Position numbers and translations under genes: made by a program
Notes under the pieces: model-generated
Databases searched by the model: none
Told to the model about the DNA's origin: nothing
The model's input: only the letters and a program-made list of their open reading frames with translations
Shown: one piece after another, positions 2,903-52,384 of the stretch
Numbering within the stretch: position 1 is the stretch's first letter
How the letters are laid out: every line of letters begins with the position of its first letter
Assembly: GCA_030390025.1 (NCBI GenBank)
Contig: CM059431.1
Coordinates: forward strand, 120,158,001 to 120,222,000
Direction of reading: 5' to 3'
Length of the DNA stretch: 64,000 bases
DNA from: Squalus acanthias
Taxonomy: Eukaryota

Positions 2903-3205
2903 AGGGGCCGCCCTGAGAACGGGCGGCGCTGTACAGTAATAAGTTTAAGTTTAGGATAAGTTTCTAAGTTTATAAGTTTAAGGTTATAAGTTTATAGTTT
3001 TAAATAAGGTTAAGTTTGTAGTTTAATTTTAACAGAAAATGGTAAAATGATGGGAGCTTTAGAGATAGGTCTAGTTAAAGTTTATTTAGTGAACATTGAA
3101 GTTTACGTGAGGCGAGGTCAGGGGACCCGCTCACCCTTCACAAAAGCCAGAGACTCTTGTGAGGCTGGCTACCTCATTCTATCTGATCACAGGAACCAAG
3201 GAAGG

Positions 3206-16200: not shown

Positions 16201-16674
16201 TCTCCCTCCCTCCCCAGTTTGTGTTTCTCTCTTCCCTCCCTCCCCAGTTTGTGTTTCTCTCTCCCTCTCTCCCCAGTTTGTGCCTTTATCTCCCTCCCTC
16301 CCCAGTTTGTGTTTCTCTCTCCCTCCCTCCCCAGTTTTGTCTTTATCTTCCTCCCTCCCCAGTTTGTTTCTTTATCTCCCTCCCTCCCCAGTTTCTGTTG
16401 CTGTCTCAGGACTCAGGGAGTTTCTAGGCAAATTTTGTTGACCCTGATCCTGTCATCCACACAACCGGCAATGAAGTGGTGTGTTCCGAATAACAGGGGG
16501 AACAGCAGGGTCCAACAATGCCTTTTCGTTGCAAGCGACGATATCCAGGTTACTGAACATGCACAAACCGGGCATCCAAGGACCGTTTCTCCAGCGTCTC
16601 CAGCAGCAATGCTCGGGAGACCAATCGCTCATTCTGGGAGACTCCCAGTCAAAGCGGAACAGTTGGGAACCCTT
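10245..16674. mobile_element. Non-autonomous hAT-type DNA transposon carrying an expanded satellite
   Basis: TIRs TAGGGTTGCCAACT (10245) and AGTTGGGAACCCTT (to 16674), 12/14 match. Perfect 8-bp TSD CTCGAAAG at 10237-10244 and 16675-16682. Confidence 0.88.
10745..16395. repeat. Minisatellite array, unit about 22-33 bp, consensus CCCCAGTTTGTGTTTCTCTCTCCCTCTCT
   Basis: Roughly 200 directly visible units that vary in (CT)n length. Confidence 0.98.
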
Positions 16675-27252: not shown

Positions 27253-28500
27253 ATGGGTACCACTTATACTGTCTCACCTTGGTCTTCAGAATCGAACCAA
27301 GATAAACCCCACCAGCAGCAGCAGGCACACCAACAGCAGCAGCAAAAACACCACCAACATTCTCCTCAACGACCTGGTGCTCCACAGGACAGAGGGCATC
27401 AACGCAGGGCTGCACCACGCTGGAGGCGATATCCCCAACACAGGATATACAGGCAGAGGATGGGCTTCCTCAACATGATTGAGCAGCAGTGCCAAAGGAG
27501 GCTCAGGCTATCATGCCAGGTCATTGCAGACATTTGCAGCTTACTGGCGCAAGACCTGCAGCCCAGTGGACCTGGTGGATACACCTTGACAGTGGCTGTC
27601 AAAGTCACCACTGCCCTCAACTTCTTTGCCTCAGGCTCCTTCCATGGATCTGCAGCAGACATTTGTGGCATCTTGCAGTTGGCTGCCCACAGATGCATCA
27701 CACAGGTGACCAATGCCATGTTTAACAAGTCAGCCAATTATGTCAACTTTGCCACTGATGAAGCCAGTGTTACTGAGCGGGCACTCAGCTTTGCAGCTCT
27801 GGCTGACTTCCCACAGGTGCAGGGCATCATCGACTGCACACAGGTGGCCATCAAGGCACCCCATCATCACCCAGGAGTGTTTGTGAACCGCAAGGGCTTC
27901 CACTCCCTCAGTGTGCAGCTGGTCTGCAACCATAGTAACATCATCATGCATGTGTGCATCAAATTCCCTGGCAGCTCTCATGACTCTTTCGTGCAGCACC
28001 AGTTCACCCTCCCTCAGCTCTTCGCACCGCCAAGCACACTTACCGGCTGGCTGCTTGGAGACAAGGGCTATCCACTGAAGACGTGGCTTATGACACCCTT
28101 GAAGAGGTCAAGCAATGAGGACAACGAGGAACATTATAATGAAAGCCACATATCCACCAGATGTATCATAGAGCAAACAATAGGCGCGCTCAAGATTCGC
28201 TTCAGATGACTTGACAGACCTGGAGGAGTCCTTCAGTATGCACCAGCCAGGGTCTCCAGAATTGTCGTCGTATGCTGCGCCCTGCACAACATAGCGCAGC
28301 AACGAGGATTAGCGCTGCATGAAGAACAAGGCACATAGCGCACAGTCTCTTCCGAGGAGCAGGAGGAGGAGGAGGAGTATCAGCTGGAAGATGAGGAGGA
28401 GGAGGAGCAGGAGGAACCTAAGGTCCAGATGGCACCAACAGCAGAGCACATTGCTGCCCAGGAGGCCAGGGATGACCTCATCATGGCCAGAATTACTTAA
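27253..28500 (+). pseudogene. Harbinger DDE transposase (HARBI1-like), premature stop at 28207-28209
   Basis: [55 protein letters not shown]; homology continues (CCALHNIA) past the stop. Confidence 0.9.
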
Positions 28501-32754: not shown

Positions 32755-35700
32755 TGGGGACAATAGCATAGTGGTTCTGTAACTGGACGAGTAATCCTAA
32801 AGGCCTGTACTAATAATCTGGATAGTTGTGAATTCAAATCCCACCACGGCAGCTGGGGAATTTAAATTCAATTAAATAAATCTGGAATGAAAAAGCAAGT
32901 ATCAGTAATGGTGACCATGAAACTATTGGATTGTTGTAAAAACCCATCTGGTTCACTAATATCCAGATTAGGAAATCTGTTGTCCTTACCTATATGTGAC
33001 TCCAGACCCACAGCAATGTTGTTGACTCGTAATTGCCCTCTGAAATGGCCTTGCAAGCCACTCAGTTGTAAAAAAAATGCTACAAAAAACAATAAGAATA
33101 AAACCGGACGGACCACTCGGCACCGACCATGTGGACACAACATAGTCATACTCACAAAATCATACCTTTCAGCCAATGTCCCAAACTCCCCCATCACCAT
33201 CCCTGGGTGTGTCACCCACCAGGGGTGGCGGCATAGTGGTATACAGTCGGGAAGGAGTGGCCCTGGGAGTCCTCAACATTGACTCCTGACCCCATGAAGT
33301 CTCACCACAGTACTCCTCTAAGTTGAACACCACTTGGAAGAAGCACTGACAGTAGCAAGGGCACAGAATGCACTCTGGGTGGGGGACTTCAATGTCCATC
33401 ATCAAGAGTGGCTCGGTAGCACCACGACCGGCTGAGTCCTGAAGGACATAGCTGCCAGTCTGGGCCTGCAACAGGTGGTGAGAGAACCAACATGAGGGAA
33501 AAACCTACTTGACCTTGTCCTCACCAATCTACCTGTCACAGATGCATCTGTCCATGACAGTATTGGTGGCAGTGACCACCGCACAGTCATTGTGGAGACG
33601 AGGTCCTTTCTTCATACTGAGGACACACTCCATCGTGTTGTGTGGCACTACCACCAGGCTAAATGGGATAGATTCAGAACAGATCTAGCAGCTCAAAACT
33701 GGGCATCCATGAGGTGCTGTGGGTCATCAACAGCAGCAGAATTGAAATCCACCACAATCTGTAACCTCATGGCCCGGCATATACGCCACTCTACCATTAC
33801 CATCAAGCCAGGGGACCAGCCCTGGTTCAATAAGGAGTGAAGAAGAGCATGCCAGGAACAGCAGAAGGTGTACCTAAAAATACGGTGCCAACTTGGGGAA
33901 GCTGCAACACAGGACTACATGAATGCTAAAAAGCAGAAGCAGCATGCTATAGTCAGGGCTAAGTGATCCCACAATCAATGGATCAGATCAAAGCTCTGCA
34001 GTCCTGCCACATCCAGTCGTGAATGGTGGTGGATCATTAAACAACTAATGGGAGGAGGAGGCTCCATGAATATCCCCATCCTCAATGATGGTGGAGCCCA
34101 GCACGTGAGTGCAAAAGACAAAGCTGAAGCATTTGCAACCATCTTCAGCCAGAAGTGCCGAGTGAATGATTCATATTGGCCTCCTCCTGAGGTCCCCACC
34201 ATCACAGCAGCCAGTCTTCAGCCAATTCGATTCACTCCACGCGATATCAAGAAATGGCTGAGCGCACTGGACACAGCAAAGGCTGTGGGCCCCGACAACA
34301 TCCAAGCTGTTGTGCTCCAGAACTAGCCAAGCTGTTCCAGTACAGCTATAACATCGGCATCTATCTGACAATGTGGAAAACTGCCCAGGTATTTCCTGTC
34401 CACGAAAAGCAGGACAAGTCCAATCCGACCAATTACCGCCCCATCAGTCTACTCTCAATCATTAGCAAAGTGATGGAAGGTGTCGTCGACTGTGCTATCA
34501 AGCAACACTTACTCACCAATAACCTGCTCACTGATGCCCAGTTTGGATTCTGCCAGGACCACTCGGCTCCAGACCTCATTACAACCTTGGTCCAAACATG
34601 GACAAAAGAGCTGAATTCCAGAGGTGAGGTGAGAGTGACTGCCCTTGACATCAAGGCAGCATTTGACTGAGTGTGGCATCAAGGAGCCCTAGTAAAACTG
34701 AAGTCAATGGGAATCGGGGGGAATAATCTCCACTGGCTGGAGTCACACCTAGCACAAAGGAAGATGGTTCTGGTGGTTGGAGGTCAATCATCACAGCCCC
34801 AGGACATCGCTGCAGGAGTTCCTAAGGGCAGTGTCCTAGGCCCAACCATCTTTAGCTGCTTCATCAATGACCTTCCCTCCATCATCAGGTCAGAAGTGGG
34901 GATGTTCGCTGATGACTGCACAGTATTCAGTGCCATTCACAACTCCTCTGATAATGAAGCAGTCCATGCCTGCATGCAGCAAGACCGGGATGACATTCGG
35001 GCTTGGGCTGATAAGTGGCAGGTAACATTCACGCCACACAAGTGCCAGGCAATGACTATCTCCAACAAGCGAGCGCCTAACCACCGCCCCTTGACATTCA
35101 ACGGCATTACCATCGCCGAATCCCCCACCATCAATATCCTGGAGGTCACCATTGACCAGAAACTTAACTGGACCAGCCACATAAATACTGTGGCAAAAAG
35201 AGCAGTTCAGAGGCTGGGTATTCTGCAGCAAGCGTCTCACCTCCTGACTCCCCAAAGCCTTTCCACCATCTACAAGTCAGGAGTGTGATGGAATACTCTC
35301 CACTTGCCTGGGTGAGTGCAGCTCCAACAACACTCAAGAAGCTCGACACCATCCAAGACAAAGCAGCCCACTTGATTGGCACCCCATCCACCAACTTAAA
35401 CATTCACTCCCTCCACCACCAGCATACTGTGGCTGCAGTGTGTACCATCTACAAGATGCACTGCAGCAACTCACCAAGGCTTCTTCGGCAGCACCTCCCA
35501 AACCTGTGACCTCTACCACCTTGAAGGACAAGGGCAGCAGGTGCATGGGAACACCACCACCTCCAAGTTCCCCTCCAAGTCACACACCATCCTGATTTAG
35601 AAGTATATCGCTGATCCTTCATCGTCGCTGGGTCAAAATCTAGGAACTCCCTCTCTAACAGCACTGTGGTAGTACCTTCACCACACGGACTGCAGCCGTT

Positions 35701-37986: not shown

Positions 37987-38619
37987 AAACCTGCTGACAA
38001 GGGTGGCATTGTTGTTGTTTGGCGAACTGAACTCTACCTTGTGGAGGCTGAACGCTAAGTCTCTGACGCCTCCTCCTCCCTCCCCCTGAACCATGACCCC
38101 ACTACCAAACATCAAGCCATCGTTTCCAAGACTGTCACTGATCTCATCGCCTCTGGAGATCTTCCCTCCATGGCTGGCAACCTCATAGTTCCCGAATCCT
38201 GCACGGCCCGCTTCTACCTCCTTACCCAGATCCACAAACCAGACTACCCTGGTAGACCCATCGTTTTAGCCTGTTCTTGCCCCACAGAACTGATTTCTTC
38301 CTATCTTGACTCTATTTTATTTCTCCTCTTATCCAGTCTCATCCCACCTACATCCGCCACTCTTTTGACACCCTCCGCCACTTTAACAATTTCTAGTTTC
38401 CTGGCCCCAACCATCTCCTTTTCACTATGGACGCCCAATTACTCTACACCTCCCACCAGGACGGCCTGAGGGCGCTCCACTTCTTTTTTGAACAGAGGCC
38501 CAACCAGTCCCCATCCACCACCATCCTCCTCCGCCTGGCTGAACTTGTTTTGACATTGAAAAACTTCTCCTTTGACACCACTCACTTTCTCCAATTAAAG
38601 ATGTTGCTATGGGAACCCA
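37987..38619 (+). mobile_element. Penelope-like element, RT 5' part (split by copy B)
   Basis: PADKGG, ARFYLLTQIHK, GRPIV motifs; runs up to AMGT at the LTR boundary. Confidence 0.85.
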
Positions 38620-40329
38620 TGTAAGGGATTCCTGACCCTGCGTGTCTCGCAGCCTGTGAGATTCACGCGGCTCTGTGCAGCCTGTATGTCAGTGCGGGTC
38701 TAGGCCTGGTCTCCAGCCAGTCTGGGAACACTAGACACACCTGCGAGTGGTTCGAATCACTCTCCCTTACGGTTCTAGACACTGGACTTAGATGCGAGAG
38801 CAGTAATGGAGATAAAACTCATGTAGACTTGGTTTGAATGGTACGAAATGGAAAATCTTTATTGCATGATACTTAAAATTATGAAATACATGTCATAAGC
38901 ACAGATTAATGACAGTACAATCTTACAAACAGTTATATAGTCGATCTTAGGGAAACGAGGAACGAACGGCACAAAGTAAATAGGGGCACACATTACAAAT
39001 ATCCTTAATCCTTAAACCCTCCCCTATCAATATCTATCCTAAACTAGATTCGTAGGATCTTGAGACTCATGCTCACCACTCGTGATAACTCGGAGAAATT
39101 CCGAATAGCTGATCGGATGTTTTTCACCGCAGCACCCACGTGTCGGTCAGGAGATCTCCTGGTCCCACTTGTTTACTTGCTTCTGCTGCTCCGGCTAGCA
39201 GGCTGGACCGTCTGCTGTGATGAAGACCTGTGTTGGTTGGCTTAACAGGTACTCTTGGAGCACAGTTGTCAATATCATCGATACGATGTGTTTTCACGTT
39301 CCAATCTCCTTGGACACAGTCCCGTTATCGTCGATGCAATATGTTTTGTTAAAAGTTCAAAAGAGAAATCTTCCTGGCGAGGAAAACTTGGCTAATCGAC
39401 CTACAGGCGCGGTCGGGATTTACTGACCGTGGCGATGGATATGGTCTTCCTCTCTTCTCATCTCATCTCATCTCATCTCATCTCATCTCGGGCCTTTGGT
39501 TCCGCTGCCAGTTACCAACATAGGTCTTCGTTACGCGACACGAGGTAGATCCGAACGGATCAGAAAGTTCAACAGTCTTTTCAGAAGAGGCAACAGGCAA
39601 GCAGAAGCCCAACTACGAGTACACAGGAGCAGCCACGAGGTTACGAATCGACCGGATAAAGGCACAGGAGCAAGCGAGCGAATGCAAGAGCAAGAGAGAG
39701 AATGGACGGTTTGGAGCCTGCAATTATAGTGCAAAAATCTTCCGTTTCCCGCCCAACTATAATGTCCATTCTTTTGTTTAGGGTTTGGCGCCCAAATGTC
39801 TTGTATGGGTGATCTCCGTTCTTAATGGGTTTCGGGGCTACTCGTAAATGTCTGAGTACCTGTTAATATTTCTCCCATTGTTAAATCGGTCGGTGTTCTC
39901 CCTGGAGGGGTTTGGGGCTTCCAAGTGTCCTGTATAACTACCTGCTAACGGCTCTCTCATCGTAGAGTCGTTGGGATTTTACATATTAATGTCTTTTGGA
40001 TGGGCCCTTGAGTACTCGGTACAATGGCTTTCCTTTGTACCTGGGAGACCGATTCCAGTATCTATGTTTATACTGCAAACCCATAATGTCTCGTGTATTA
40101 TCTTCACTGTGCTGAATCGTAATCGATCTTGCACAAATGTTTATTGGAACGCCATCTTGTCTGCCTGTTGAAAAGTCTAGAATGTTCTGTCACGAGGTGC
40201 GGCGGCCATTTTACAGGCTGCTTGTGTCCAATTTAAACCTGCCAGCATTCTGCTGAAATAAAAGCTGTTTGAACGAAACTTTGTGTTTTCTCCTTATTAA
40301 TCACATCGCGATATATTGCGAATTCTACA
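38620..40329 (-). repeat. 3' LTR of copy B (1710 bp)
   Basis: Direct repeat of 49753-51475 apart from a 13-bp deletion near 38707 and two substitutions seen by eye. Confidence 0.97.
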
Positions 40330-40340
40330 GTCCCTCCTGT
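40330..40340 (-). promoter_or_regulatory. Polypurine tract ACAGGAGGGAC
   Basis: Directly abuts the 3' LTR. Confidence 0.7.
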
Positions 40341-40771
40341 TGATGCGAATAACTCCGCTTATCGTATCAAAAATCATAGTGGTGAGCAATATTATCTCGA
40401 TTTCTCTCCGAATCCAGTAAATTAATCCCATAATTTTTAACTTATCTAGGGTCTCTGTGTCGTCCTTATTTCCCAAGAAAATTACATTTTACATCACCGT
40501 AGGCATTATTTGCCCTTAAACTTACACCACTTGTTTTCCTTCCCGGCGTAACCAGGCCGATACCTCTCGTATCACCTGTATATTTGTCTTTTATTCAGGG
40601 AAAGGAAAAAACAAAACCCAAAACCAAACAATCAACACCATCACCAAAATAATCAAAACCCCAACTCTTAAAACATGTCGAGTTCCCAACGTATTTACAA
40701 TCTCTGAAAATCTTATATGAGTACAAACTTCCGCGGCGCACGCGGCGAGCGGGAGTGACGCCATTTTCCGA

Positions 40772-43123
40772 TTACACGGTGCTCTCATCGTGCACGCGCA
40801 CGTAACGTTCTCGCCACTCTCCCGTGTTTTCATGCTTGGTGAGGCGTTTGTCTCTTTTACAATGTATGACCAATAGGTACACTACAATAAACACTTGACA
40901 TACGACTAAAATGTGGGAGGCTATTCTGATCCATGAAGGCACTTCAATATTAGTGAACAGATTCCACCACGGTGGAACTACTATGTCCAAAATGTCTGTT
41001 CCTATTTCGACAGTTTTCTGCTCTAATGTATAAAAATGTTTCTGTGATACCGCGACGGCTTTCAGAAGTTTGGTTAAGTGTTCAGGGAGAGGGGGAATGA
41101 GGTATCCAAAATGCGCGACAAATCGCTGCAAGTCGGTGAAATTCTCTTTTACTGTGAGATGAACAGTGGATGGTTCAGGGATTGGGATGATTCGCTGTTG
41201 TGCTACTTGAACTTCAGCCCTGGGTTTAAAACAGAAACTGCTGTCACTCACCGGACACCGGCTACGGTTTCCATGCTGGTAGTGTTGCGCTGCAGTGGTA
41301 ACACAATATGTTCCACCCCCGATGTATGCTACCTGCGGAGGCACATGATCTTGTGCCATTGCCTCCATGGTGCAATTCATGGACTTGGCGCCAGCCGTTC
41401 TGAACCCGCACTGTGGTGTTAAAAAGGCATTCAAGTGCTGGGGGCACAGTATTATGTGTGCTCCCCTGCCACGACAACCAGAGAGATCTGTACCTGTCAT
41501 CGTTTGCTCCCAGCGGATGACGTAAGGTGGAACCGCTGCATAACGAATGTGGGCTCCCCCCTGAATGACACCAATGTTCTCTACCCGATATACCGGGGCG
41601 GGCTTTGCTGTGTCGCCCAAAACCGGCATGCGTAATACTATTCCCATAATAGTATGGTTTGATCGTCCGCAGTCCACGGGGACTGGGTAAGCTTCTGAAG
41701 CTAGCCTGAGCTGGCACGGACTTAATGCGTTCTGAAAAGGGTGGAGCGCCCGTAGGTGTTTGTTACTTATCCAGGACGGAACCAAACCTTGTTTTAAATC
41801 CTCCAAATTACTGCGGCCCTCGCCCAGTAACCACGCCCCGTAAAGCACGCACACCTCGTTCTGCGCAGCTTGATCGGATGCATTCCGATCTTCCCTGATC
41901 AGGGCATTTACCGTACGCGCATGTTTCTCCAGCTCTGCTATAATTTCCTTTAAATGGAGAGTCATGGCTTGGTCCTCGTGTAGACCTGACCCTACCACTT
42001 TATTCTCATCTGTTAAAATGTCTTTTAACTGTGTCTTTAAACCATTAATCTGGGTCTGCAGCTCCACACTGTCTAGAGCGTTGACCACAGATGTACCTGT
42101 GTTAAAAGCAGTGAACGCATCGTTCACCAAACCCCTTCTTTGCCTCCCTACTTGATCCAAAACTTCCTGTGGTGCGGTGTACAAACTTGTTTTATCAATT
42201 TCTGCAAAATCGAATTCGTAAAATTGTCTGAACATCTTGGTCAACAGGACCTGGTACAACTGTTCCGTCTTTTTGGGGCACCATTCTGGTAACCGCACCT
42301 CGGTGAGATTTAAAATCACCGAGGCCACCGCGTAATGTACCCCCTGAAATAGTATCTGGTCTGTGGGGACCAGTACCAAACCATTCCCGGGTCCCTTACT
42401 AGTTTTTGGGCACCCTTCTTCCTCAGCTAGAACCACCGGAATCGTGGGCGGGGCTTTGCGTGGGCGCGTAATGAGTTCAGTGGCATTTACTGGGATCGGG
42501 GAGAATGGGGCTCCGCACCCCCTGGTGCTCGCATCCCACCTCATCCCCTGTCCGTTATCCTGCCATTGATTAATAAAAAATATGGAGATGCCTTTGGGGC
42601 AAACGTACTTTGACCCCCACATACATACATAAATTCCCTCATCCGGTTCCCACCATTTGTCCCAACAGACTTTCACTTGTCCGTCTGTCCCCGTAATTGT
42701 CCGATGGGTATTATTACCCAGTCGTTCCCACTCGACCGAAGAGTTCCTCATAGTTTTGCTCAGCTTTCGTAGCCACCACCATCGGCTCAATGGGACATTC
42801 CCACTACAAGTCAAACAAATCCGTTTGCCGACGGTGACGCTGATCCTGGGTGCGATGATCCTTACTTTGGGGCACAGTAAAGAAGTCTCTTTGTAGGCAA
42901 ACCCCGAGGTGCTAGAATACTCCGTTGAGTTCGTTCCCAGCCATCCTGGCCACCTTCCCTTGTGGAAATAGGTGCTGGTCCCCTCTGCCTTCCGTCTTCC
43001 GGTCCCATCCACCGCGATGGGGGCCGTGTCCCCGGAACATCCAAACACCACGACATCCTTGGTGCGGCCTCGATAGGCCAATCCACATCCGATTGCCACG
43101 AGCAATACTAGAATTCGTTCCAT
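40772..43123 (-). CDS. env: Env glycoprotein, 783 aa (signal peptide, Ig-like domain, F-like class I fusogen, TM)
   Basis: Intact ORF with the same motifs as 3206-5557; about 27 amino-acid differences by manual count. Confidence 0.9.
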   Translation of the reverse strand: MERILVLLVAIGCGLAYRGRTKDVVVFGCSGDTAPIAVDGTGRRKAEGTSTYFHKGRWPGWLGTNSTEYSSTSGFAYKETSLLCPKVRIIAPRISVTVGKRICLTCSGNVPLSRWWWLRKLSKTMRNSSVEWERLGNNTHRTITGTDGQVKVCWDKWWEPDEGIYVCMWGSKYVCPKGISIFFINQWQDNGQGMRWDASTRGCGAPFSPIPVNATELITRPRKAPPTIPVVLAEEEGCPKTSKGPGNGLVLVPTDQILFQGVHYAVASVILNLTEVRLPEWCPKKTEQLYQVLLTKMFRQFYEFDFAEIDKTSLYTAPQEVLDQVGRQRRGLVNDAFTAFNTGTSVVNALDSVELQTQINGLKTQLKDILTDENKVVGSGLHEDQAMTLHLKEIIAELEKHARTVNALIREDRNASDQAAQNEVCVLYGAWLLGEGRSNLEDLKQGLVPSWISNKHLRALHPFQNALSPCQLRLASEAYPVPVDCGRSNHTIMGIVLRMPVLGDTAKPAPVYRVENIGVIQGGAHIRYAAVPPYVIRWEQTMTGTDLSGCRGRGAHIILCPQHLNAFLTPQCGFRTAGAKSMNCTMEAMAQDHVPPQVAYIGGGTYCVTTAAQHYQHGNRSRCPVSDSSFCFKPRAEVQVAQQRIIPIPEPSTVHLTVKENFTDLQRFVAHFGYLIPPLPEHLTKLLKAVAVSQKHFYTLEQKTVEIGTDILDIVVPPWWNLFTNIEVPSWIRIASHILVVCQVFIVVYLLVIHCKRDKRLTKHENTGEWRERYVRVHDESTV

Positions 43124-43412
43124 CCTTCCTTGGTTCCTGTGATCAGATAGAATGAGGTAGCCAGCCTCGCAAGAGTCTCTGGCTTTTGTGAAGGGTGAGC
43201 GGGTCCCCTGACCTCGCCTCACGTAAACTTCAACGTTTGCTGAATAAACTTCCACTAAACCTATCTTTAAAAACTCCCATCATTTTATCGTTTTCTGTTA
43301 AAAACACTACAAACTTAGCCTTATTAAAAAAAACTATAAACTTAACCTTGAACTATAAACTTAAAACTTAACTTCTTACTATACAGTGCCGCCCGTTCTC
43401 AGGGCGGCCCCT

Positions 43413-46400
43413 TTAAATTCTGAGAAGGCTGCTGCGAGCTCTTCCCGACGGTGGGAGGGCACTGACCCTTCCCTCTGATCTGCCGCAGCCTGTTGCTGCG
43501 CTGACCTTTCCCTCTGATCTGCCGCAGCCTGTTACTGCTGCGATGTGGCCGGTCTGTACCCGGGTTATCTTAACCTGAAGTCTACGCCTTGGGGCAGTCT
43601 GGGGACATGACCACATCCTCCTGGGCTGGGGTTCTCTGCTTGACCTACGGGGAGTTGCTATGGGCGGGGGTTCCGTGACGGACGGACCGGGTTCCGAGAC
43701 CTCCAACGGGATGACCTGGGGTTCCATCACAGTCGCCGGCTCCGCCTCCGCTGACTCCGCCTCCCTAACCTCGGGGCTGGCAGTTCGTGGCTCCGCCCTG
43801 CTCGGCCCAGCAGGCGGCCCTTCACTCGTGATCTCTGCCTCCCCTGAGGACTGGACGTTCAAAGCGGGCGGCCACATCTCTGGGAGCCACACCGGTACTC
43901 TCTGTGCTCCTATAGCGGCTGGCCCTGCCTCCTCTAGCTCCTCCCTCCTGTCCTCGGGACCTGCAGCTTGTGTGTCCACCCTGTGTGGGTCTCTACCTAT
44001 AGGCCCCATTCCTTCCAGACCGTTCCTCAGGAACCACCCGTCATCATCACTATGCTCATCTGCACTATCCTCATCTGACCAGGGTACCCTGGGTTCTTCC
44101 TCATCTAACCCCCAACTCCAGAAAAACGCTGCATGATCGTCCGGGATGTCCCTTCCCCTGATGCAAGCTGCTATGCCTGCCTGTGTGCCTTGTGGTCCTA
44201 CCTGGGGCTGTGCTTTCCCATTGGCGGGATTTACCCCTGTAGTTTTCCCCTGCGCACCTGGCTGGTACAGTTTGCATTGGTTTATGTGGAACCACTTAGT
44301 GCGCCGAGGTACTTTTACGGCGTAAACCATGGGACTCGCCTTGTCTACAATGTTGTAGGGTCCCATATACAGTGGTTCCAGACTCCCTACTCTGGCGTAG
44401 TTTCTGACCATGACCTGGTCTCCTACTTCCCACTCCCGCGTTTTGCGGGGTTCCAGCAACAAGCGATTGCCCTGATGCTGCCTTCCCATGTTCCCAGCCG
44501 CCTGCTCATAAACTTGCTTCAGGCGCTCCAAGAGAGTCTGGGCGAACTTGTCCCTGCTTATCTCTTGGAGCTGACCCTCAGTGAGCACCGGTGCTAGCAC
44601 ATGGGTGGGGGTTCGCATGAGCCTCCCAGTCATTACCTCGTGCGGGGAGTACCCCGTACTTTTTGACTGACTGGCCCGGACCCCCATGAGGACTAAAGGC
44701 AGAACTTCCGCCCATTTTTGGGGCGAGTTCCTAGTCTCTTTCCTCAATTTCTCCTTCAGGGTCCGGTTCATACGTTCAACAATCCCGGATGACTGGGGAT
44801 TGTGTGCTACGTGCCACTTCCCTTCAATGCCCAAAAGCATGAGGGTGTTCTGCATCACCTGGCCGGTGAAATGACTCCCTTGGTCTGACTCCACAAAACG
44901 GGGAAGTCCCCACCGCGAGAACACTTCCCGGACCAAGATTTTTGCTGTACCCAGTGCCGTAGCTGTTCGACAAGGGAAGGCTTCCACCCACTTGGAAAAC
45001 ACATCCACCAGGACGAGGCAGTACTTATAACCTCCCTGGGTGGTGGGCAGGGGTCCTATATAGTCGATCTGTATCGACTGCCATGGTCCCTCTACCCTTC
45101 TTACGTGTCCCATGGGCACCTTCCTTTTCTGGGGGTCTGGGTTGTTTGCAGCGCACACAAGACAGTTTGCACAGAACTCGCGGACTTGTTCCCTGAGCCC
45201 TGGCCACCATCCCGCTTGCTCTACCCGTTGCCAGGTAACCTCGGGCCCGGGGTGCCCTGCCCCTGGTCCCTCGTGAGCCAACTGGAGGAATTCCCTCCTG
45301 TGCTGCTGCGGCACAACCCACTGCTCCTCGCGGAACAGCATGCCTTCCTTAACTGAGAGGGTTGCCGTACTGTACGGACCTTCTACCCGCCTCCCCTCAG
45401 CAATCGTTTTTAGGACTGCTTTTAGGGCGGGATCCTGGGCTTGGACGGTCTTGAGGTCTAGGGGCAATGCTACCCTGGTGTTCCCGGGATTCCCATCCCC
45501 GCCTCGGACCGCTGCTATGGGTCCGGTCCTATAGGGGTTCCAGAAAATGCCGTCGCGGGCACCCTCCCTGGCTAGCGCATCCGCCTGCCGGTTGCCCTCC
45601 CCACGGGGCTCTGTGGAGGAGTGAGCTTTCACCTTATGGATGAAAGTCTCTCCTTCCTCCCCTACTGCTGCTGCTAAGATCTTTTCCAGCAAGGGCTTCA
45701 CCGTTAAAGGTCGCCCGTCCGCGGAGGTGTATCCGCGGCGGGACCAAATGGCCAGGTATTCCGTACACGAATTGCAGGTGAACATACTGTCCGAGCAAAT
45801 CGTGTATGGGGTTGGGAAAATGTCTGGGTGGGTCACAACGTACACCACGGCAGACAGCTCAGCCTGCTGCGCGCTCATGGTGCTAGGGAGCTTGATTGCC
45901 AGGGCAAGGTCTGCCGCAGGGTCATAAACTCCACACCCTGTGAGTCGCTCGCCAGCAGACACTGTGCTAGACCCATCAACATAAATCTCGCGCCCAGTGG
46001 GATGTATCCCGGCCCGTAAACCTATGTTGACATCCCACACCCCTTCCACCGAACACCGGTGGGCTGTACCGGGGTATACCAAATTGGCCGCAAGCCTGGG
46101 CTCGCAAAGACCTTTTACTCTAAGATCCAACTGGGAGAGAAGAAGGGTCCAACGCGCAATGCGTGCGCTGCTTACGGTCCCGTCTTTAATCCTCCCATCC
46201 AGAAGCATCTTAGTTGGTGTGTGATGTGTGAGGAGAGTGATGGGAGAGAGCCCTGTGAAGATCGCTGATCTTTTCACAGCCCAATGCGTGGCTAAAAGGT
46301 GCCTTTCGCAATTGGAGAAACTTCTCTCCACATCCGTTAATACCCTGGATGAGTAGACAACCGGCCTCAGCTTGCCGTGACGCTCTTGGAGCAGCACGGC

Positions 46401-47936
46401 GCTTAAGCTGTCTCCGCTGGCAGCTACCTCCAGGAAAAACTCCTTCCCCCCATCTATGGCCCCTAAGGCTGGCGCGGTCTGCAGATCCCCTTTTAACTTC
46501 TCGAAGGCTGCTTGGCAGCCCTCGTCCCAAAGCCACTCCACCCCCTTATGGAGGAGTCGGAGGAGCGGCGCCGCTGTGGCCGCATAATCTTCGATAAAAT
46601 CCCTGCAGTAACCGGTCAGTCCCAAGAAGGACCTCACACCCCTTACGTTGTTGGGAATCGGTAATTCTTGCACCGACTCCCTCCTTGCTTTGTCTATGGC
46701 TCTTTCCCCAGCGCGTATGGTCAGTCCCAGGAATTTTACTTCCCGCTGACCGATACGTGCTTTCTTAGGGTTTATTTTAAAACCCTTTCTCGCTAACAGT
46801 TCCAATAACTCGTCCAGTAGTGGTCCGTGCTCCTCCCTTGAGTCCGTAAATAGGAGCAAATCATCCACATACTGTACTATCTGATTGGGCTGACTAAACT
46901 CCTTTAAGCTTCCTGCCATACACTGATGAAAAATACTGGGGCTATTGTGGAAACCCTGTGGCAGACAGTTCCACGTGTACTGTTGCCCTTTGAAAGTAAA
47001 GGCAAACTTGTACTGGTCCTCTCGCCGCAGCGGGATGGACCAAAAACCGTTCGAGATATCCAGCACCGTGAACGTGGTCGCGGACGCTGGGATGCTCCCT
47101 ATTAGGTCAGCAACTGCTGCTACTGTGGGCGCGCAGGCGGGAATGTTACTGTTAAGGACTCTGTAGTCCACCGTGGCTCTCCACGAATTATCCGGCTTCC
47201 TAACCGGCCATAATGGGGAGTTCACGTGTGTGGCTATCGGCCTCAACACGCCCTGCTGCACCAAGGAAGACATTGCTGTCTCCATATCGGGTTCTGCTTC
47301 TTTGGGGAAGTTATACTGCTTTTGGGGTCGGGTCATGGGGTCCCCATCTACGCTGACCTCAAACCCGACCACTCTCCCACAATCGTGCTTGTGGGTTGCA
47401 AACGCGTGCATATTATCTGACACGTACGTTTGCATGTCCGTTGGGACATCTGCGACCATAAGCCTGAGGTCGTAGCCTCCGGATGGCTGTACGGTACACA
47501 GGACCCCTGTTTCTTCCTCCCCCGGAATCACTATTACCTCGCCTTTTTCACCTTTAGCCCCCCAGAGACAGTGATTTCTGAGGTCCACGAGGATCCCGTG
47601 TCCCGCTAGGAGATCGGACCCGAGAATACCTCTTCCACCCCCCTTTTGCCATGCCATCAGTATACACTTCCACTTAAGGCGAAGTGTTCCTAAACGAATG
47701 GATAGCGGAAGGGAAAACGTGCCAGCCTGTTCTTTTCCTGTGAACCCTGCCAACGTGAATGGGACCTTGGTAGATAGCGGCGAGTCAAAAGGGTTATCTG
47801 TATGGATTATGGTGCAAGAAGCTCCCGTGTCCAACAAATAACTGCCCTTCTGTTTCTCTACCTCCATCTCCACCACAGGTCGCCTCCACGCATCATAGCT
47901 AAGCGGACACAGGTAGACGGGCTGTGCTGGTTCTAG
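43413..47936 (-). CDS. pol: Pol: aspartic protease, RT, degenerate RNase H (tether), RNase H, integrase, GPY motif, about 290-aa low-complexity tail; probably made by gag stop readthrough
   Basis: LLDTGAS and GILGSDLL; LPQGFHNSP and YVDD; IYVDGSS..AEL..SDS..GNRQAD; HHCC plus IDYIGP, SDQGSHF, VERMN. The frame is open right up to the gag TGA. Confidence 0.96.
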   Translation of the reverse strand, partial: LEPAQPVYLCPLSYDAWRRPVVEMEVEKQKGSYLLDTGASCTIIHTDNPFDSPLSTKVPFTLAGFTGKEQAGTFSLPLSIRLGTLRLKWKCILMAWQKGGGRGILGSDLLAGHGILVDLRNHCLWGAKGEKGEVIVIPGEEETGVLCTVQPSGGYDLRLMVADVPTDMQTYVSDNMHAFATHKHDCGRVVGFEVSVDGDPMTRPQKQYNFPKEAEPDMETAMSSLVQQGVLRPIATHVNSPLWPVRKPDNSWRATVDYRVLNSNIPACAPTVAAVADLIGSIPASATTFTVLDISNGFWSIPLRREDQYKFAFTFKGQQYTWNCLPQGFHNSPSIFHQCMAGSLKEFSQPNQIVQYVDDLLLFTDSREEHGPLLDELLELLARKGFKINPKKARIGQREVKFLGLTIRAGERAIDKARRESVQELPIPNNVRGVRSFLGLTGYCRDFIEDYAATAAPLLRLLHKGVEWLWDEGCQAAFEKLKGDLQTAPALGAIDGGKEFFLEVAASGDSLSAVLLQERHGKLRPVVYSSRVLTDVERSFSNCERHLLATHWAVKRSAIFTGLSPITLLTHHTPTKMLLDGRIKDGTVSSARIARWTLLLSQLDLRVKGLCEPRLAANLVYPGTAHRCSVEGVWDVNIGLRAGIHPTGREIYVDGSSTVSAGERLTGCGVYDPAADLALAIKLPSTMSAQQAELSAVVYVVTHPDIFPTPYTICSDSMFTCNSCTEYLAIWSRRGYTSADGRPLTVKPLLEKILAAAVGEEGETFIHKVKAHSSTEPRGEGNRQADALAREGARDGIFWNPYRTGPIAAVRGGDGNPGNTRVALPLDLKTVQAQDPALKAVLKTIAEGRRVEGPYSTATLSVKEGMLFREEQWVVPQQHRREFLQLAHEGPGAGHPGPEVTWQRVEQAGWWPGLREQVREFCANCLVCAANNPDPQKRKVPMGHVRRVEGPWQSIQIDYIGPLPTTQGGYKYCLVLVDVFSKWVEAFPCRTATALGTAKILVREVFSRWGLPRFVESDQGSHFTGQVMQNTLMLLGIEGKWHVAHNPQSSGIVERMNRTLKEKLRKETRNSPQKWAEVLPLVLMGVRASQSKSTGYSPHEVMTGRLMRTPTHVLAPVLTEGQLQEISRDKFAQTLLERLKQVYEQAAGNMGRQHQGNRLLLEPRKTREWEVGDQVMVRNYARVGSLEPLYMGPYNIVDKASPMVYAVKVPRRTKWFHINQCKLYQPGAQGKTTGVNPANGKAQPQVGPQGTQAGIAACIRGRDIPDDHAAFFWSWGLDEEEPRVPWSDEDSADEHSDDDGWFLRNGLEGMGPIGRDPHRVDTQAAGPEDRREELEEAGPAAIGAQRVPVWLPEMWPPALNVQSSGEAEITSEGPPAGPSRAEPRTASPEVREAESAEAEPATVMEPQVIPLEVSEPGPSVTEPPPIATPRRSSREPQPRRMWSCPQTAPRRRLQVKITRVQTGHIAAVTGCGRSEGKVSAATGCGRSEGRVSALPPSGRARSSLLRI

Positions 47937-49748
47937 TCATGGGGCACTATTAGACGGTCCTGCGGCACCTACGGGGCCGGTTGCGACCGCCACCTGTCCA
48001 CGCGCATTCAAAACCAGCTTGCGCATGGCTCCTAACACTGCTTCGAGGTCGTCGGGAGGGGTGGGTGCCTTGGCTTCCTTAGCCGGGACAGGCGCCTGGG
48101 CTCGCACCGCGGGATTTTTATCCTTGGAATCCTTCCAAGGGTTCCTGCAATGCTTGCGCCAGTGCCCTGTCTTCCCACACCCGTAACAAGCATTACTTGC
48201 CTGTGGGGCGCGATTACCCTCCTGATGCCACTCTCTTTGATACGGGGCTGCGGGTCGTACCTCATGTACTCTTCCCTTAAGGGGACGTGTTGCCATACCC
48301 CTTATATTGCGATAACCTAACGTGAGTCGATTCAAGACCGACTCTTCCGTAATGTTGAGGTCATTGGGATCAAACCATGCTTTTGCCTGCTCTCTAACGG
48401 CTGGTAAACTGTTGGCTATTATGCACCTAAGCCAATGAGTTAAAGCGGCGCCTTCCACATCTTCGCGCTCGGGCGCACCTAGACAGCTGCGCTCATATAC
48501 TGGCCACAGCCTGTCGGCAAAAACCTTCGGGGGTTCTCCCTCCATCTGCACTGTCTGTCCCACTCTAGCAAACGGACCTTCGTCGTTCGCCCCCAACACT
48601 TCTAGGACCTCGTTCTTTAATTCCTCATAACTCTTGGTTCCCCTCTTGCTCTCGCCTGAGAGACACTGAAGGACCGAGCTGTCTAATGAGAACAGCAGCA
48701 TTTTTGCTGTCTCCCCATCATCGCAGCCGTTAATGGCTGCGGCTTGCTCAACTTCTCTGAAATGTACGGAAGGGTCGTCTATCTCGGTCAGCTTCCGTAC
48801 GTGATTTATCATAGCTCTCAGCTGATGTGAACTGTGAGGCAACACCAGCTGTCCGAGGAGATCCCCCGGTTCTTCCCCACCGTTTCTGCTTGGGCCCCTT
48901 TTAATACCCGTTACTGGATACAACGATCCCTTTTCTGCTTCCTTTTCAAAGGGCTCTTTTGTTTCTTCCATTGCTTCCTCCCTAACCCAGGTTTCTGAAT
49001 AGCTGGGTGGCGCGGAGGGCGCAGTGGCTACTACTTCTTCTGCTTTACTTGGTGGGGATTTTCTAAATCTCTCATTTACTAGCGGCTGGTGCGCCGACGG
49101 ATTGATAAGGCACACCATGCCGTTCGCATTGTTCACGGCCTTTTTGAGGTTCTCTATCTCCCTTTGGCAGGCGCTATGATCGGCTCCCTGAAACTTATCC
49201 TCAAGGGCCAACTTATATGCCGACCTAACCCCCATTAAGCTCTCTTCTTGAGTTCTTATCTGGGCAGCTTGGCGGTTACATCTTTCCTTTAACCTGCTCT
49301 CATTCAATTTTGCCTCAGTGACCTGGCACTCGAGATAATCTATCCTTGTTTTAAGGTGACTGGAGACTTCCTGGCTTTCTTGGTGTAACTCATTTAAATT
49401 CTTAATGAGCACCTCCCCTCCAGAAACCTTCTCCTCCATTTCTCCCTCTAAATGACTGATTCGAGCTACTAGCGCTGTAATGGTCTGGTTTGAAATCTGA
49501 ACCTGCCTTTTGTAACACATAAGCCAGACTGCTTTCTCAAGTGTCTTTCTATGTTCTTTACTATCTGTCCACCTTTCAGCTGCCTCTAGTGGGCTCTTAT
49601 CCGCTAACAATTCACTTATCCATTTCTTAGTTAGATTAACCTTTCCAAACACATAATCCGCTATCTTTTCCTGCATAACATTTCGTACAGTCATTCCAAA
49701 ATCTAACACACTACCCTCTCGCTGCCAGTGTCCTGCCGCGGTCGCCAT
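47937..49748 (-). CDS. gag: Gag, 603 aa (coiled coil, PSAPPSY late domain, capsid-like region, CCHC knuckle)
   Basis: ATG in AAAATGG context at 49748; CYGCGKTGHWRKHC; uninterrupted. Confidence 0.93.
   Translation of the reverse strand: MATAAGHWQREGSVLDFGMTVRNVMQEKIADYVFGKVNLTKKWISELLADKSPLEAAERWTDSKEHRKTLEKAVWLMCYKRQVQISNQTITALVARISHLEGEMEEKVSGGEVLIKNLNELHQESQEVSSHLKTRIDYLECQVTEAKLNESRLKERCNRQAAQIRTQEESLMGVRSAYKLALEDKFQGADHSACQREIENLKKAVNNANGMVCLINPSAHQPLVNERFRKSPPSKAEEVVATAPSAPPSYSETWVREEAMEETKEPFEKEAEKGSLYPVTGIKRGPSRNGGEEPGDLLGQLVLPHSSHQLRAMINHVRKLTEIDDPSVHFREVEQAAAINGCDDGETAKMLLFSLDSSVLQCLSGESKRGTKSYEELKNEVLEVLGANDEGPFARVGQTVQMEGEPPKVFADRLWPVYERSCLGAPEREDVEGAALTHWLRCIIANSLPAVREQAKAWFDPNDLNITEESVLNRLTLGYRNIRGMATRPLKGRVHEVRPAAPYQREWHQEGNRAPQASNACYGCGKTGHWRKHCRNPWKDSKDKNPAVRAQAPVPAKEAKAPTPPDDLEAVLGAMRKLVLNARGQVAVATGPVGAAGPSNSAP
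49730..49747 (-). promoter_or_regulatory. Primer-binding site TGGCGACCGCGGCAGGAC (tRNA-Ser-like pattern)
   Basis: TGG starts 5 nt after the LTR-terminal CA. TGGCG-N7-CAGGA resembles complements of vertebrate tRNA-Ser 3' ends; the exact tRNA is not verified. Confidence 0.65.
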
Positions 49749-49752
49749 TTTC

Positions 49753-51475
49753 TGTAAGGGATTCCTGACCCTGCGTGTCTCGCAGCCTGTGAGATTCACG
49801 CGGCTCTGTGCAGCCTGTATGTCAGTGCGGGTCTAGGCCTTGTTGCCTGTTCTGGTCTCCAGCCAGTCTAGGAACACTAGACACACCTGCGAGTGGTTCG
49901 AATCACTCTCCCTTACGGTTCTAGACACTGGACTTAGATGCGAGAGCAGTAATGGAGATAAAACTCATGTAGACTTGGTTTGAATGGTACGAAATGGAAA
50001 ATCTTTATTGCATGATACTTAAAATTATGAAATACATGTCATAAGCACAGATTAATGACAGTACAATCTTACAAACAGTTATATAGTCGATCTTAGGGAA
50101 ACGAGGAACGAACGGCACAAAGTAAATAGGGGCACACATTACAAATATCCTTAATCCTTAAACCCTCCCCTATCAATATCTATCCTAAACTAGATTCGTA
50201 GGATCTCGAGACTCATGCTCACCACTCGTGATAACTCGGAGAAATTCCGAATAGCTGATCGGATGTTTTTCACCGCAGCACCCACGTGTCGGTCAGGAGA
50301 TCTCCTGGTCCCACTTGTTTACTTGCTTCTGCTGCTCCGGCTAGCAGGCTGGACCGTCTGCTGTGATGAAGACCTGTGTTGGTTGGCTTAACAGGTACTC
50401 TTGGAGCACAGTTGTCAATATCATCGATACGATGTGTTTTCACGTTCCAATCTCCTTGGACACAGTCCCGTTATCGTCGATGCAATATGTTTTGTTAAAA
50501 GTTCAAAAGAGAAATCTTCCTGGCGAGGAAAACTTGGCTAATCGACCTACAGGCGCGGTCGGGATTTACTGACCGTGGCGATGGATATGGTCTTCCTCTC
50601 TTCTCATCTCATCTCATCTCATCTCATCTCATCTCGGGCCTTTGGTTCCGCTGCCAGTTACCAACATAGGTCTTCGTTACGCGACACGAGGTAGATCCGA
50701 ACGGATCAGAAAGTTCAACAGTCTTTTCAGAAGAGGCAACAGGCAAGCAGAAGCCCAACTACGAGTACACAGGAGCAGCCACGAGGTTACGAATCGACCG
50801 GATAAAGGCACAGGAGCAAGCGAGCGAATGCAAGAGCAAGAGAGAGAATGGACGGTTTGGAGCCTGCAATTATAGTGCAAAAATCTTCCGTTTCCCGCCC
50901 AACTATAATGTCCATTCTTTTGTTTAGGGTTTGGCGCCCAAATGTCTTGTATGGGTGATCTCCGTTCTTAATGGGTTTCGGGGCTACTCGTAAATGTCTG
51001 AGTACCTGTTAATATTTCTCCCATTGTTAAATCGGTCGGTGTTCTCCCTGGAGGGGTTTGGGGCTTCCAAGTGTCCTGTATAACTACCTGCTAACGGCTC
51101 TCTCATCGTAGAGTCGTTGGGATTTTACATATTAATGTCTTTTGGATGGGCCCTTGAGTACTCGGTACAATGGCTTTCCTTTGTACCTGGGAGACCGATT
51201 CCAGTATCTATGTTTATACTGCAAACCCATAATGTCTCGTGTATTATCTTCACTGTGCTGAATCGTAATCGATCTTGCACAAATGTTTATTGGAACGCCA
51301 TCTTGTCTGCCTGTTGAAAAGTCTAGAATGTTCTGTCACGAGGTGCGGCGGCCATTTTACAGGCTGCTTGTGTCCAATTTAAACCTGCCAGCATTCTGCT
51401 GAAATAAAAGCTGTTTGAACGAAACTTTGTGTTTTCTCCTTATTAATCACATCGCGATATATTGCGAATTCTACA
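49753..51475 (-). repeat. 5' LTR of copy B (1723 bp)
   Basis: Minus strand TGTAGAATTCGC...CCCTTACA; TATAAT at 50869-50874 with an upstream GC box. Confidence 0.97.
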
Positions 51476-52384
51476 CCCATATAGGTCCTAGCTATGCCTA
51501 CCTTTTCGTGGGATATATGAAACATTCTTTGTTCAAGTGCTACTCAGGTCCCCTCCCTCACCTCTTTATCCGGTACATTGATGACTGTCTCGGTGCCGCT
51601 TCCTGCTCTCGACCTGAACTAGAAAATTTCATTCCCCTTGCTTCCAATTTCCACCCTTCCCTCACCTTCACATGGTCCATCTCCGACTCTTCCCTTCCCT
51701 TCCTCAACTTCTCCGTCAACATTTCTGGGGATAGGCTATCGACAAATATCAACTGTAAGCCCACTGACTCCCACAGCTACCTGGACTACACTTCCTCCCA
51801 CCCCACTTCCTGTAAGGACTCAATTCCATTCTCCCAGTTTCTCTGTCTCCGTCTGTTTTGCCAACTTCCATACTAGTGCTAACGATATGTCTTCCTTTTT
51901 CCTCAACCGAGAATTCCCCTCTACCATGGTTGACACGGTCCTCGACTGTGTCCATTCCATTTCCCGTACTTCTGCTCTTGCCCATTCCCCTCCCTCCGAG
52001 AACCACAATAGAGTTCCCATTGTCCTCACCTTTCATCCCACCAGCCTCCACATTCAATGGATCATCCTCCGCCATTTCTGCCACCTCCAGCGTGAGCCCA
52101 CCACCAAACACATGTTCCCCTCCCCTCCACTTTCAGCATTCTGAAGGGACCACTCCCTCCGCAACACCCTGGTCCACTCTTCAATCACCCCCAACACCCC
52201 CACCCCTTTCGACGGCACCTTCCCATGCAAGCGCAGGAGATGCAACACTTGCTCTTTTACCTCCTTCCTTCCCACTGTCCAGGGCCCCAAACACGGCTTC
52301 TGTGTGAAACAGCGATTTACTTGTACTTCTTGCAATTTAGTATACTGTATTCGCTGCTTATGATGCGGTCTCCTGTACATTAAG
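51476..52384 (+). mobile_element. Penelope-like element, RT 3' part and start of GIY-YIG region
   Basis: GPSYA, RYIDD, LPFL, KPTDSH.YL, Cys motifs. Removing the provirus restores AMGTHIGPSYA. Confidence 0.85.

Follow-up and report, generated by a model that had tools for sequence, protein, structure and literature searches.

A stretch of 64,000 nucleotides from Squalus acanthias (GenBank assembly GCA_030390025.1, contig CM059431.1, positions 120,158,001 to 120,222,000 of the forward strand), hereafter called the window, carries on its minus strand an endogenous retrovirus (ERV) of 12,856 bp at positions 38620-51475. The element is probably a coding-complete provirus that integrated recently and belongs to a very abundant cartilaginous-fish ERV family, which has an envelope protein (Env) with the fusion (F) protein fold, has been re-infecting the germ line and represents a deep retroviral lineage. 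An earlier note on this DNA had described an intact, young lokiretrovirus-like provirus with two ribonuclease H (RNase H) domains and an F-like Env; the anatomy and youth were borne out, whereas membership of the lokiretroviruses was not upheld.

Structure of the provirus

The long terminal repeats (LTRs) begin with TG and end with CA. In one BLAST alignment of 1,723 columns they differ by two substitutions and one 13-bp indel, the 13 bases being absent from the 3′ LTR close to its 3′ end, and the element is flanked on both sides by the 4-bp target-site duplication TGGG. The primer binding site (PBS) begins 5 nt past the 5′ LTR and matches tRNA-Arg(TCG) of the same genome over 18 nt. The 20-nt probe combining the PBS complement and the T-loop had 433 exact sites in the genome, in tandem gene arrays, and ARAGORN predicted a tRNA-Arg(tcg) ending exactly at the probe site in both loci scanned (L096 and L097). 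The first ATG of gag (49746-49748) overlaps the PBS, so there is no leader between the PBS and gag. Three uninterrupted open reading frames (ORFs, called under the standard code) of 603, 1,484 and 783 amino acids lie on the minus strand, and a purine run adjoins the 3′ LTR. No accessory ORF was found 3′ of env in the window copy, where about 440 nt are available. With paired LTRs, a PBS, a polypurine tract, a target duplication and gag-pol-env, the element belongs to Retroviridae in the wide sense. The landmarks listed in the earlier note, including the small LTR divergence, were all confirmed. The features, all on the minus strand, are as follows.

51476..51479, minus: target-site duplication, upstream copy, TGGG on the element's strand (sequence at the LTR edge)
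49753..51475, minus: 5′ LTR, 1,723 bp, TG..CA ends (LTR-LTR alignment)
49730..49747, minus: PBS, 18 nt, complement of the tRNA-Arg(TCG) 3′ end including CCA (genome tRNA match)
47937..49748, minus: gag, 603 aa, with coiled coil, helical middle and zinc knuckle (ORF)
43413..47936, minus: pol frame, 1,507 codons stop to stop, 1,484 aa from the first ATG at 47867 (ORF)
47568..47867, minus: aspartic protease region, DTG at Pol residue 13 (weak gag-asp_proteas match)
46716..47204, minus: reverse transcriptase (RT) core, LPQGFHNSP at 302 and YVDD at 333 (RVT_1)
46131..46529, minus: first, Ty3/Gypsy-type RNase H-like domain, or tether (RT_RNaseH_2 / RT_RNaseH)
45558..45989, minus: second RNase H (PF00075)
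44265..45314, minus: integrase (IN) with H2C2 zinc domain, rve core and GPY-bearing SH3-like end (Pfam and motif)
43416..44264, minus: low-complexity C-terminal pol tail, about 280 aa, kept in the pol-less variant
40772..43123, minus: env, 783 aa, with signal peptide, extra N-terminal part, F-like ectodomain, transmembrane (TM) helix and short tail
42392..43066, minus: N-terminal Env region, residues 20-244 (poorly modelled, weak Ig-like hints)
42134..42145, minus: furin-type site RQRR, residues 327-330 (motif)
40988..42391, minus: F-like ectodomain, residues 245-712 (fold and profile alignments)
40862..40933, minus: TM helix, about residues 731-754 (sequence and model)
40330..40341, minus: polypurine-type tract directly before the 3′ LTR (purine run)
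38620..40329, minus: 3′ LTR, 1,710 bp, TG..CA ends (LTR-LTR alignment)
38616..38619, minus: target-site duplication, downstream copy, TGGG (sequence at the LTR edge)

The tRNA-Arg(TCG) arrays have a period of about 1,623 bp at G000:C26:38.99-41.88 Mb, and the array locus L097 also holds tRNA-Ser(GCT).

The envelope protein

The 783-residue Env has a signal peptide, the cleavage site RQRR, a fusion-peptide-like stretch past it, a long heptad helix (coiled coil) and a TM segment, which is the build of a Mononegavirales F protein. Searches with the Env sequence returned no Pfam family at 0.01, chance-level rows without PF00523 at E values up to 10 and no Foamy_virus_ENV; phmmer against PDB sequences gave nothing below E 0.9, and a protein atlas search gave no usable match. 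HMMER over 1.84 billion representatives found 50 Env relatives, the named ones coming from one skate, three sharks and three frogs. PF00523 was absent from all 13 relatives scanned at E up to 1, and one chimeric relative model had a sub-threshold Baculo_F match. Two sawshark models, P0005 and P0006, join an env piece to host proteins (Niban 1-like and ZFP2-like); they reflect either chimeric annotation or insertion of the element into genes.

An AlphaFold2 model of Env built on 39 sequences had a mean predicted local distance difference test (pLDDT) score of 61 and was confident at residues 240-310 and 430-650. All 38 matches listed by Foldseek against PDB were paramyxo-/pneumovirus F proteins, the best being human parainfluenza virus 3 F (1ztm_C, E 2.4e-11, probability 1.00), which answers the earlier note's call for a structural comparison in favour of its F-like Env. 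In VIA-align, 49 of 50 rows were F proteins and one was the prefusion foamy virus Env 8rm0_A (Z 8.7); Z ranged from 11.6 to 8.2, and the best match, postfusion Nipah F (Z 11.6), aligned 288 residues at a root-mean-square deviation of 4.7. The aligned span runs from Env residue 245 to 650-710, which makes the first 240 or so residues an addition. According to the model, the Env shares the paramyxo-/pneumovirus F fold over its ectodomain. The family also has remote sequence homology to foamy virus Env: the best match of an Env-family profile to PDB sequences was foamy gp130 (8rm1_D, E 0.0036), and hhalign of the Env family with six foamy Envs gave a probability of 81% (E 1.2e-5, 139 columns).

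In five of six other copies (loci among L011-L019) a pair of in-frame ATGs precedes the env start by 53 codons. With this pair, about 53 residues would come ahead of the hydrophobic signal stretch in Env, an extension that may resemble the foamy virus leader peptide.

Copies of the family in the genome

The genome searched comprises 3.7 Gb in 3,882 contigs, and the copy counts are lower bounds. The family is very abundant. At least 40 full-length matches came from the LTR search, and identity was 98-100% in 38 (40 scored of 3,249 candidates). All 57 scored env copies were full length, 99-100% identical and free of stops, and the 43 scored copies from the search with RT-IN likewise had no stop. 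Open pol frames of 1,494, 1,507, 1,520 and 1,533 codons were found, differing in steps of 13 codons. This equals the length of a 39-nt tandem repeat located in the pol tail (43459-43536), and the number of repeats seems to differ among genomic copies. The search counts give a lower bound to the genome copy number that the earlier note had asked for.

LTR pairs were spaced by about 11.1 kb and about 7.7 kb. A short form of 9.5 kb, of which three copies were read, keeps the LTR and gag at one end and the pol tail, env and LTR at the other; 3,620 nt encoding protease (PR), RT, RNase H (RH) and IN are replaced by a 245-nt insert encoding coiled-coil-like repeats, and its second ORF is in frame with gag, behind a stop. 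A search with this insert found at least 40 copies at 100% identity (40 of 40 scored, 1,343 candidates). Tandem proviruses sharing an LTR (LTR-internal-LTR-internal-LTR, e.g. G000:C6:103907541-103932154) were observed, as were several pol or env pairs on one strand with a spacing of about 11.1 kb or 7.7 kb.

In seven of seven copies examined (four full, three short) the LTRs differed by 0-3 substitutions, had TG..CA ends and were bordered by 4-bp target duplications that differed from copy to copy; these copies are therefore not segmental duplicates. With substitution rates of 2.2e-10 and 0.5e-9 per site per year, taken from two shark papers (PMC4422223, PMC10699275), the two substitutions in 1,710 sites put the age of the window copy at about 1-3 million years, with a wide error. 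The intact, young provirus of the earlier note is borne out by the near-identical LTRs and the open ORFs.

Selection on env

In a first count, 40 copies chosen by their protein score had 16 non-synonymous and 106 synonymous env variants. This sample was biased and was set aside, and the count was therefore repeated on copies sampled by DNA, with the window env as reference. Twenty short-variant copies were retrieved by DNA alone, and their env genes were 96-99% identical to the window env; 15 were ungapped, one of these with a stop, and five had 1-2 gap positions. The ungapped copies held 51 non-synonymous and 136 synonymous variants, 129 of the 187 lying at third codon positions, and the variant ratio was 0.11 in the true frame versus 1.32 and 2.11 in the two wrong frames. 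Thus selection preserved env as the family's lineages diverged. Spread by re-infection would be expected to leave this pattern, and the genomic copies suggest that the family likely spread by infection. The recent activity and infectious potential proposed in the earlier note agree with the open env and pol copies and with this ratio.

Words of the window env were also found in sequencing runs under four organism labels from 8 studies; none of the runs was listed as RNA, and seven are presumed to be RNA. In all four runs examined about a third of the contigs were at least 99% alike; no splice-type joints for the minus strand were found in the contigs of these runs, and a DNA run had many low-depth joints in its contigs.

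Gag and Pol

Gag has a long N-terminal coiled coil followed by an all-helical middle part, and a zinc knuckle (CX2CX4HX4C) at residues 521-534. Pfam returned no family for it at 0.01, only chance-level rows at E up to 10, and neither Gag_spuma nor Gag_p30. The N-terminal residues of a skate Gag homologue are nearly as in the window Gag. gag and pol share one frame with a single UGA between them, followed directly by CUAG; UGA-CUAG is a stop context that favours read-through. The RNA 3′ of the gag stop gave a folding z of -1.55 against shuffled sequences, which is not distinctive. Contigs from two runs, filed under different organism labels, skip 155 nt within gag (window 48532-48688); the ends of this gap are not of splice type for the strand of the element, and it probably represents a deletion variant.

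Pfam matches on Pol were RVT_1 (E 4.9e-36), RNase_H (PF00075, E 1.1e-18), Integrase_H2C2, rve and, weakly, SH3_Tf2-1. RT_RNaseH_2/RT_RNaseH at residues 447-579 and RNase_H at 627-770 represent a tether with an added second RNase H, the dual arrangement reported in the earlier note. The motifs DTG, YVDD, HHCC and GPY are present, and the RNase H residues D631, E670, D693 and D763 are invariant or nearly invariant columns in a 16-sequence alignment, so the catalytic motifs that the note listed were all found. Its Gypsy-like, GPY-bearing integrase was likewise recovered, with H2C2 and rve domains and a Gypsy- or foamy-like affinity.

Phylogenetic position

Reference viruses were taken from IMG/VR and labelled by Pfam: L025 carries Gag_p30 and TLV_coat, L037, L049, L052, L056 and L063 carry spuma Gag families, and L037, L049 and L052 also Foamy_virus_ENV. 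All six foamy virus Gags scanned matched spuma families. Near-duplicate viruses and short or redundant rows were dropped before any tree was made, leaving 71 of 102 Pol sequences. The RT and tether tree (71 rows x 433 columns; IQ-TREE quick search, C20 mixture) was rooted on 13 Gypsy rows, from which the 58 vertebrate rows were separated as one clade (approximate likelihood ratio test, aLRT, 100). The window element fell in an 11-row clade with frog, coelacanth and turtle proteins (aLRT 95), its nearest neighbour being a Logan protein of 90% identity. This clade was sister to a 46-row clade (aLRT 97) holding every foamy, gamma, epsilon and beta/delta virus, and in this tree the RT lies outside both the Gypsy and the orthoretroviral clades, either of which the earlier note had named as a placement that would speak against it. 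In the IN tree (53 rows x 352 columns) the window clade lay in a 28-row set with Gypsy and foamy INs (aLRT 95), apart from gamma, epsilon and beta/delta. The best PDB match of the integrase was that of prototype foamy virus (PFV, 118 bits), and the RT-RNase H region matched murine leukaemia virus (MLV) and xenotropic MLV-related virus at about 238 bits, foamy PR-RT at 200-215 and human immunodeficiency virus at about 55. The window clade would thus probably be a deep retroviral lineage of sharks and skates, frogs, coelacanth and turtle at the base of Retroviridae.

Lokiretroviruses (Loki) are described as an RT clade sister to the known retroviruses, with two RNase H domains, an IN close to CGIN1 and an Env of about 590 aa, similar to PF00523 and with a short F2-like part (PMC7947760). 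The comparison was made with the consensus proteins printed in the supplement of that paper, including 8 Pol consensus sequences. All eight have the RT motifs CPFGY.NSPAEFN and IYVDDIL (PMC7947760). The window Pol instead has LPQGFHNSP and QYVDDLLL, and the pattern of its clade is LPQG(F/L).(N/D)SP and Q/VY(V/M)DD(L/V)LL. The window-type motif, with F or M after LPQG, occurs in 11 of 11 exogenous retroviruses (foamy, gamma, epsilon, beta/delta), and the Loki RT motifs occur in none of 68 Pol relatives found by words. Of the loki-type features listed in the earlier note, the dual RNase H, the GPY integrase and the F-like Env stand; the RT motifs of Loki are missing, as is a PF00523 match for Env.

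The family is probably the shark/frog 'foamy-like ERV' (FLERV) lineage known from pol alone. Since no FLERV RT is in the trees, this identity draws on host pattern and tree position. In a published tree the shark CmiFLERVs, with the frog XtrFLERV among them, are basal foamy-like ERVs, and only pol was reported for both in the part of the paper available (PMC5512871). The catshark ERV-Spuma.0-Sca consensus is described, in the part consulted, as lacking recognisable Gag or Env domains (PMC10699275).

Host group and flanking sequence

A cartilaginous-fish host, as suggested in the earlier note, is supported by exons of a Niban-like gene on contig C22, whose six matches to the part of P0005 that is sawshark protein have 64-87% identity, and by the nearest relatives of Env, Gag and Pol. 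That note had suggested the group from the flanks; the flanks themselves contain no nameable host gene, only a satellite, a transposase, RT fragments and ORFs without a Pfam match.

Cartilaginous fishes are reported to have a high RT copy number, mostly of clade III (PMC11089739), and elephant-shark ERVs were dated to more than 50 million years (Han 2015, PMC4422223). A screen for ongoing ERV invasion (ERVi) was positive in none of 13 cartilaginous fish species in its Supplementary Data 8 (Wang and Han 2023, PMC10435555). Recent retroviral activity in this group is thus absent from the Loki, ERVi and elephant-shark screens, so far as these sources were available.

The satellite (window 10809-16407, 5.6 kb) consists of about 201 copies of a 29-bp unit with 89% matches and a strong strand skew, and gives long spurious ORFs in all frames. 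A DDE_Tnp_4 (Harbinger-type) transposase ORF lies at 27232-28209 on the plus strand (E 5.7e-26). The RT fragment at 34671-35288 (plus; RVT_1, E 7.2e-17) and the ORF with a weak zinc knuckle at 22746-23675 (minus) are remains of other retroelements. Three large ORFs in succession at 458-5557 (plus), of 445, 368 and 847 codons between stops, occupy a stretch of higher G+C content and have no Pfam match; they may be another mobile element.

Proposed mode of spread and alternative explanations

From its anatomy, the element would be transcribed from the 1.7-kb LTR, and reverse transcription would be primed by tRNA-Arg(UCG). Gag would be translated from the ATG that overlaps the PBS and Gag-Pol made by read-through of the UGA-CUAG stop, and integration would leave the 4-bp duplication. 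Env is a predicted class I fusion protein of the F fold, cleaved at RQRR, and its extra N-terminal part of about 240 aa may serve receptor binding. Because env stays open and selected, the family would have spread mainly by re-infection of germ-line cells. It would carry along the 9.5-kb derivative, which retains gag, the pol tail and env and, lacking PR-RT-RH-IN, must borrow these enzymes. The lineage would stand at the base of Retroviridae, beside foamy viruses and Gypsy-type integrases, with an RT distinct from the published lokiretroviruses.

Several points weigh against this reading. The family is read from genome copies, without RNA evidence, and we know of no exogenous virus belonging to it. 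LTR identity could partly reflect gene conversion. Among the 20 DNA-sampled short-variant env copies, five have indels and one a stop, and the window copy itself has a stop codon in place of the upstream env ATG pair (43124-43279). The Gag structure model, from two sequences, had a pLDDT of 41.6 and was judged unusable. Both trees are quick searches with Shimodaira-Hasegawa-type aLRT only, have long foamy and beta/delta branches and contain no Loki, CmiFLERV, XtrFLERV, teleost FLERV, ERV-L, SnRV or lentivirus RT. In an approximately unbiased (AU) test, a tree constrained to unite the window clade and the foamy viruses in one clade was not rejected (p 0.509), its log likelihood (lnL) being 0.44 better. 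A zinc knuckle in Gag and gag-pol in one frame, unlike foamy viruses, also sit uneasily with a position beside them.

The AU result leaves room for the element to be a basal foamy-like (class III, spuma-related) ERV whose F-like Env is a divergent ordinary foamy Env. This has to be taken seriously, although we do not think it the probable explanation. The PFV integrase as best PDB match, the remote Env homology to foamy Env and the foamy Env among the fold matches agree with it, and so would the possibly leader-like Env extension of copies with the upstream ATG pair; the same holds for published trees in which pol fragments from shark and frog fall with the basal FLERVs (PMC5512871) and the report, in the part available, that most chondrichthyan ERV RTs are of clade III (PMC11089739). 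The free tree nevertheless places the window clade outside the 46-row group that includes foamy viruses (aLRT 97), and the CCHC Gag gave no Gag_spuma match, in contrast to the six foamy Gags. Gag and pol lie in one frame across a UGA, which would argue against a separate pol message, Env has no Foamy_virus_ENV match in Pfam, and the ~440 nt 3′ of env hold no accessory ORFs. The PBS is for tRNA-Arg, as opposed to Lys or Asn in FLERVs and foamy viruses (PMC5512871). An element that is a true lokiretrovirus, with an RT inside the Loki clade or as its closest sister (Wang and Han 2020), would extend Loki to cartilaginous fishes; this we regard as improbable. Gene order and domain list (RT, tether, RH, Integrase_H2C2, rve, Env) are as in the figures of PMC7947760, the Env fold is F-like and, by eye, a number of short motifs recur in both this Env and the Loki Env consensus sequences. 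In the tree the RT clade takes the place described for Loki, as sister of every retrovirus sampled, and relatives are named NYNRIN-like or GIN1-like while the Loki IN is reported to be close to CGIN1. The RT motifs differ, however, from those of all eight Loki consensus sequences and the Loki motifs are absent from the Pol relatives. Over the integrase end, the coelacanth relative Latimeria P0012 is very unlike the Loki-Lch consensus. No PF00523 match was obtained for the window Env or the 13 relatives, compared with E 2.2e-7 for Loki-Str Env (PMC7947760). The extra 240 or so N-terminal Env residues and the single DTG, against two protease-like stretches in the Loki Pols, point the same way, and none of six chondrichthyan genomes was positive in the Loki screen (Fig. 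S1 of PMC7947760).

How the family multiplied is a separate matter. Very high copy numbers are typical of retrotransposition, and together with an abundant helper-dependent deletion variant, the tandem LTR-internal-LTR-internal-LTR arrays and the lack of an exogenous virus or RNA evidence they would suit intracellular retrotransposition or genomic duplication, with env as a passenger and an element never infectious in this host. This is very improbable. The env gene is open in 57 of 57 protein-ranked and 14 of 20 DNA-sampled copies, its synonymous bias appears in the true frame only, and each of the seven copies examined has its own target duplication. The deletion variant has lost pol and not env; intracellular retrotransposition is reported to favour the opposite loss, that of env. 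Re-infection of the germ line by a virus of a deep lineage remains the preferred explanation for this family.

A further-reaching proposal is more speculative and on balance doubtful: that this is the first complete genome of a lineage between lokiretroviruses and crown retroviruses or at the foamy base, that it may still circulate as an infectious virus, that the F-type Env is ancestral and that the family has a pol-less satellite. If it were true, Loki, the window lineage and foamy viruses would all have F-like Envs and the F type would therefore be the ancestral retroviral envelope, gamma-type and other Envs being later replacements. The pol-less, env-selected variant would then be a helper-dependent 'satellite' provirus spreading by infection; no description of a helper-dependent, pol-less, env-bearing satellite provirus was found in the literature searched. 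The F-type Env found here joins three separate observations, namely the Loki Env, the foamy Env fold and the F-type Envs of invertebrate Gypsy elements, and the question of the first retroviral envelope becomes testable with real sequences. The shark/frog 'foamy-like' lineage would gain its missing gag and env, the latter of the F type. For studies of ERV spread, the family provides dozens of env genes with open frames and a naturally occurring derivative that lacks pol but bears env.

Comparison with known systems

The published lokiretroviruses, as represented in the available figures and supplement, share with the window element the order LTR-gag-pol-env, the tether with a second RNase H, the H2C2 and rve integrase of Gypsy/CGIN1 type and a class I F-like Env with furin site, fusion peptide, coiled coil and TM. 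Some of their copies also have nearly identical LTRs, and their position is likewise deep relative to the sampled retroviruses. The N-terminal region of the Loki Pols in the supplement is long and includes two protease-like stretches, whereas the window Pol has a single DTG motif. The window Env is about 190 aa longer than the Loki Env, with an N-terminal part of about 240 residues that does not appear in the published Loki Env, and no smc-like gene was seen in the window element, unlike Loki.

The shark/frog FLERVs and catshark ERV-Spuma, which could be compared by description only, show the same unusual pairing of hosts, cartilaginous fishes and frogs, and the same basal position beside the foamy viruses. 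They are described, in the parts of the papers available, from pol alone or without recognised Gag and Env and with old insertion dates; the window copy is whole, open and young, with a CCHC Gag, gag-UGA-pol and an F-like Env. Foamy viruses have in common with it an F-like Env fusion core with remote sequence homology, the RT motif LPQGF.NSP and, in PFV, the best solved integrase match. Their Gag lacks a zinc knuckle and has its own Pfam families, their pol is not fused to gag, accessory genes lie 3′ of env and the RT has YVDDIY. Like the window element, gamma- and epsilonretroviruses have gag and pol in one frame with one stop between them and QYVDDLLL in RT, and MLV makes a 4-bp target duplication. 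The window element falls outside the RT clade that holds them, its Env is not of the TLV_coat type and its Gag has no Gag_p30.

Paramyxo-/pneumovirus F proteins differ from this Env in sequence (about 10-15% identity, no Pfam match), in lacking the roughly 240 extra N-terminal residues and in not being encoded by a reverse-transcribing element. They have the same domain order and fold as Env residues 245 to about 710, and both have a furin-type site before the fusion peptide, a long heptad repeat A (HRA) helix, a heptad repeat B (HRB) and a TM helix.

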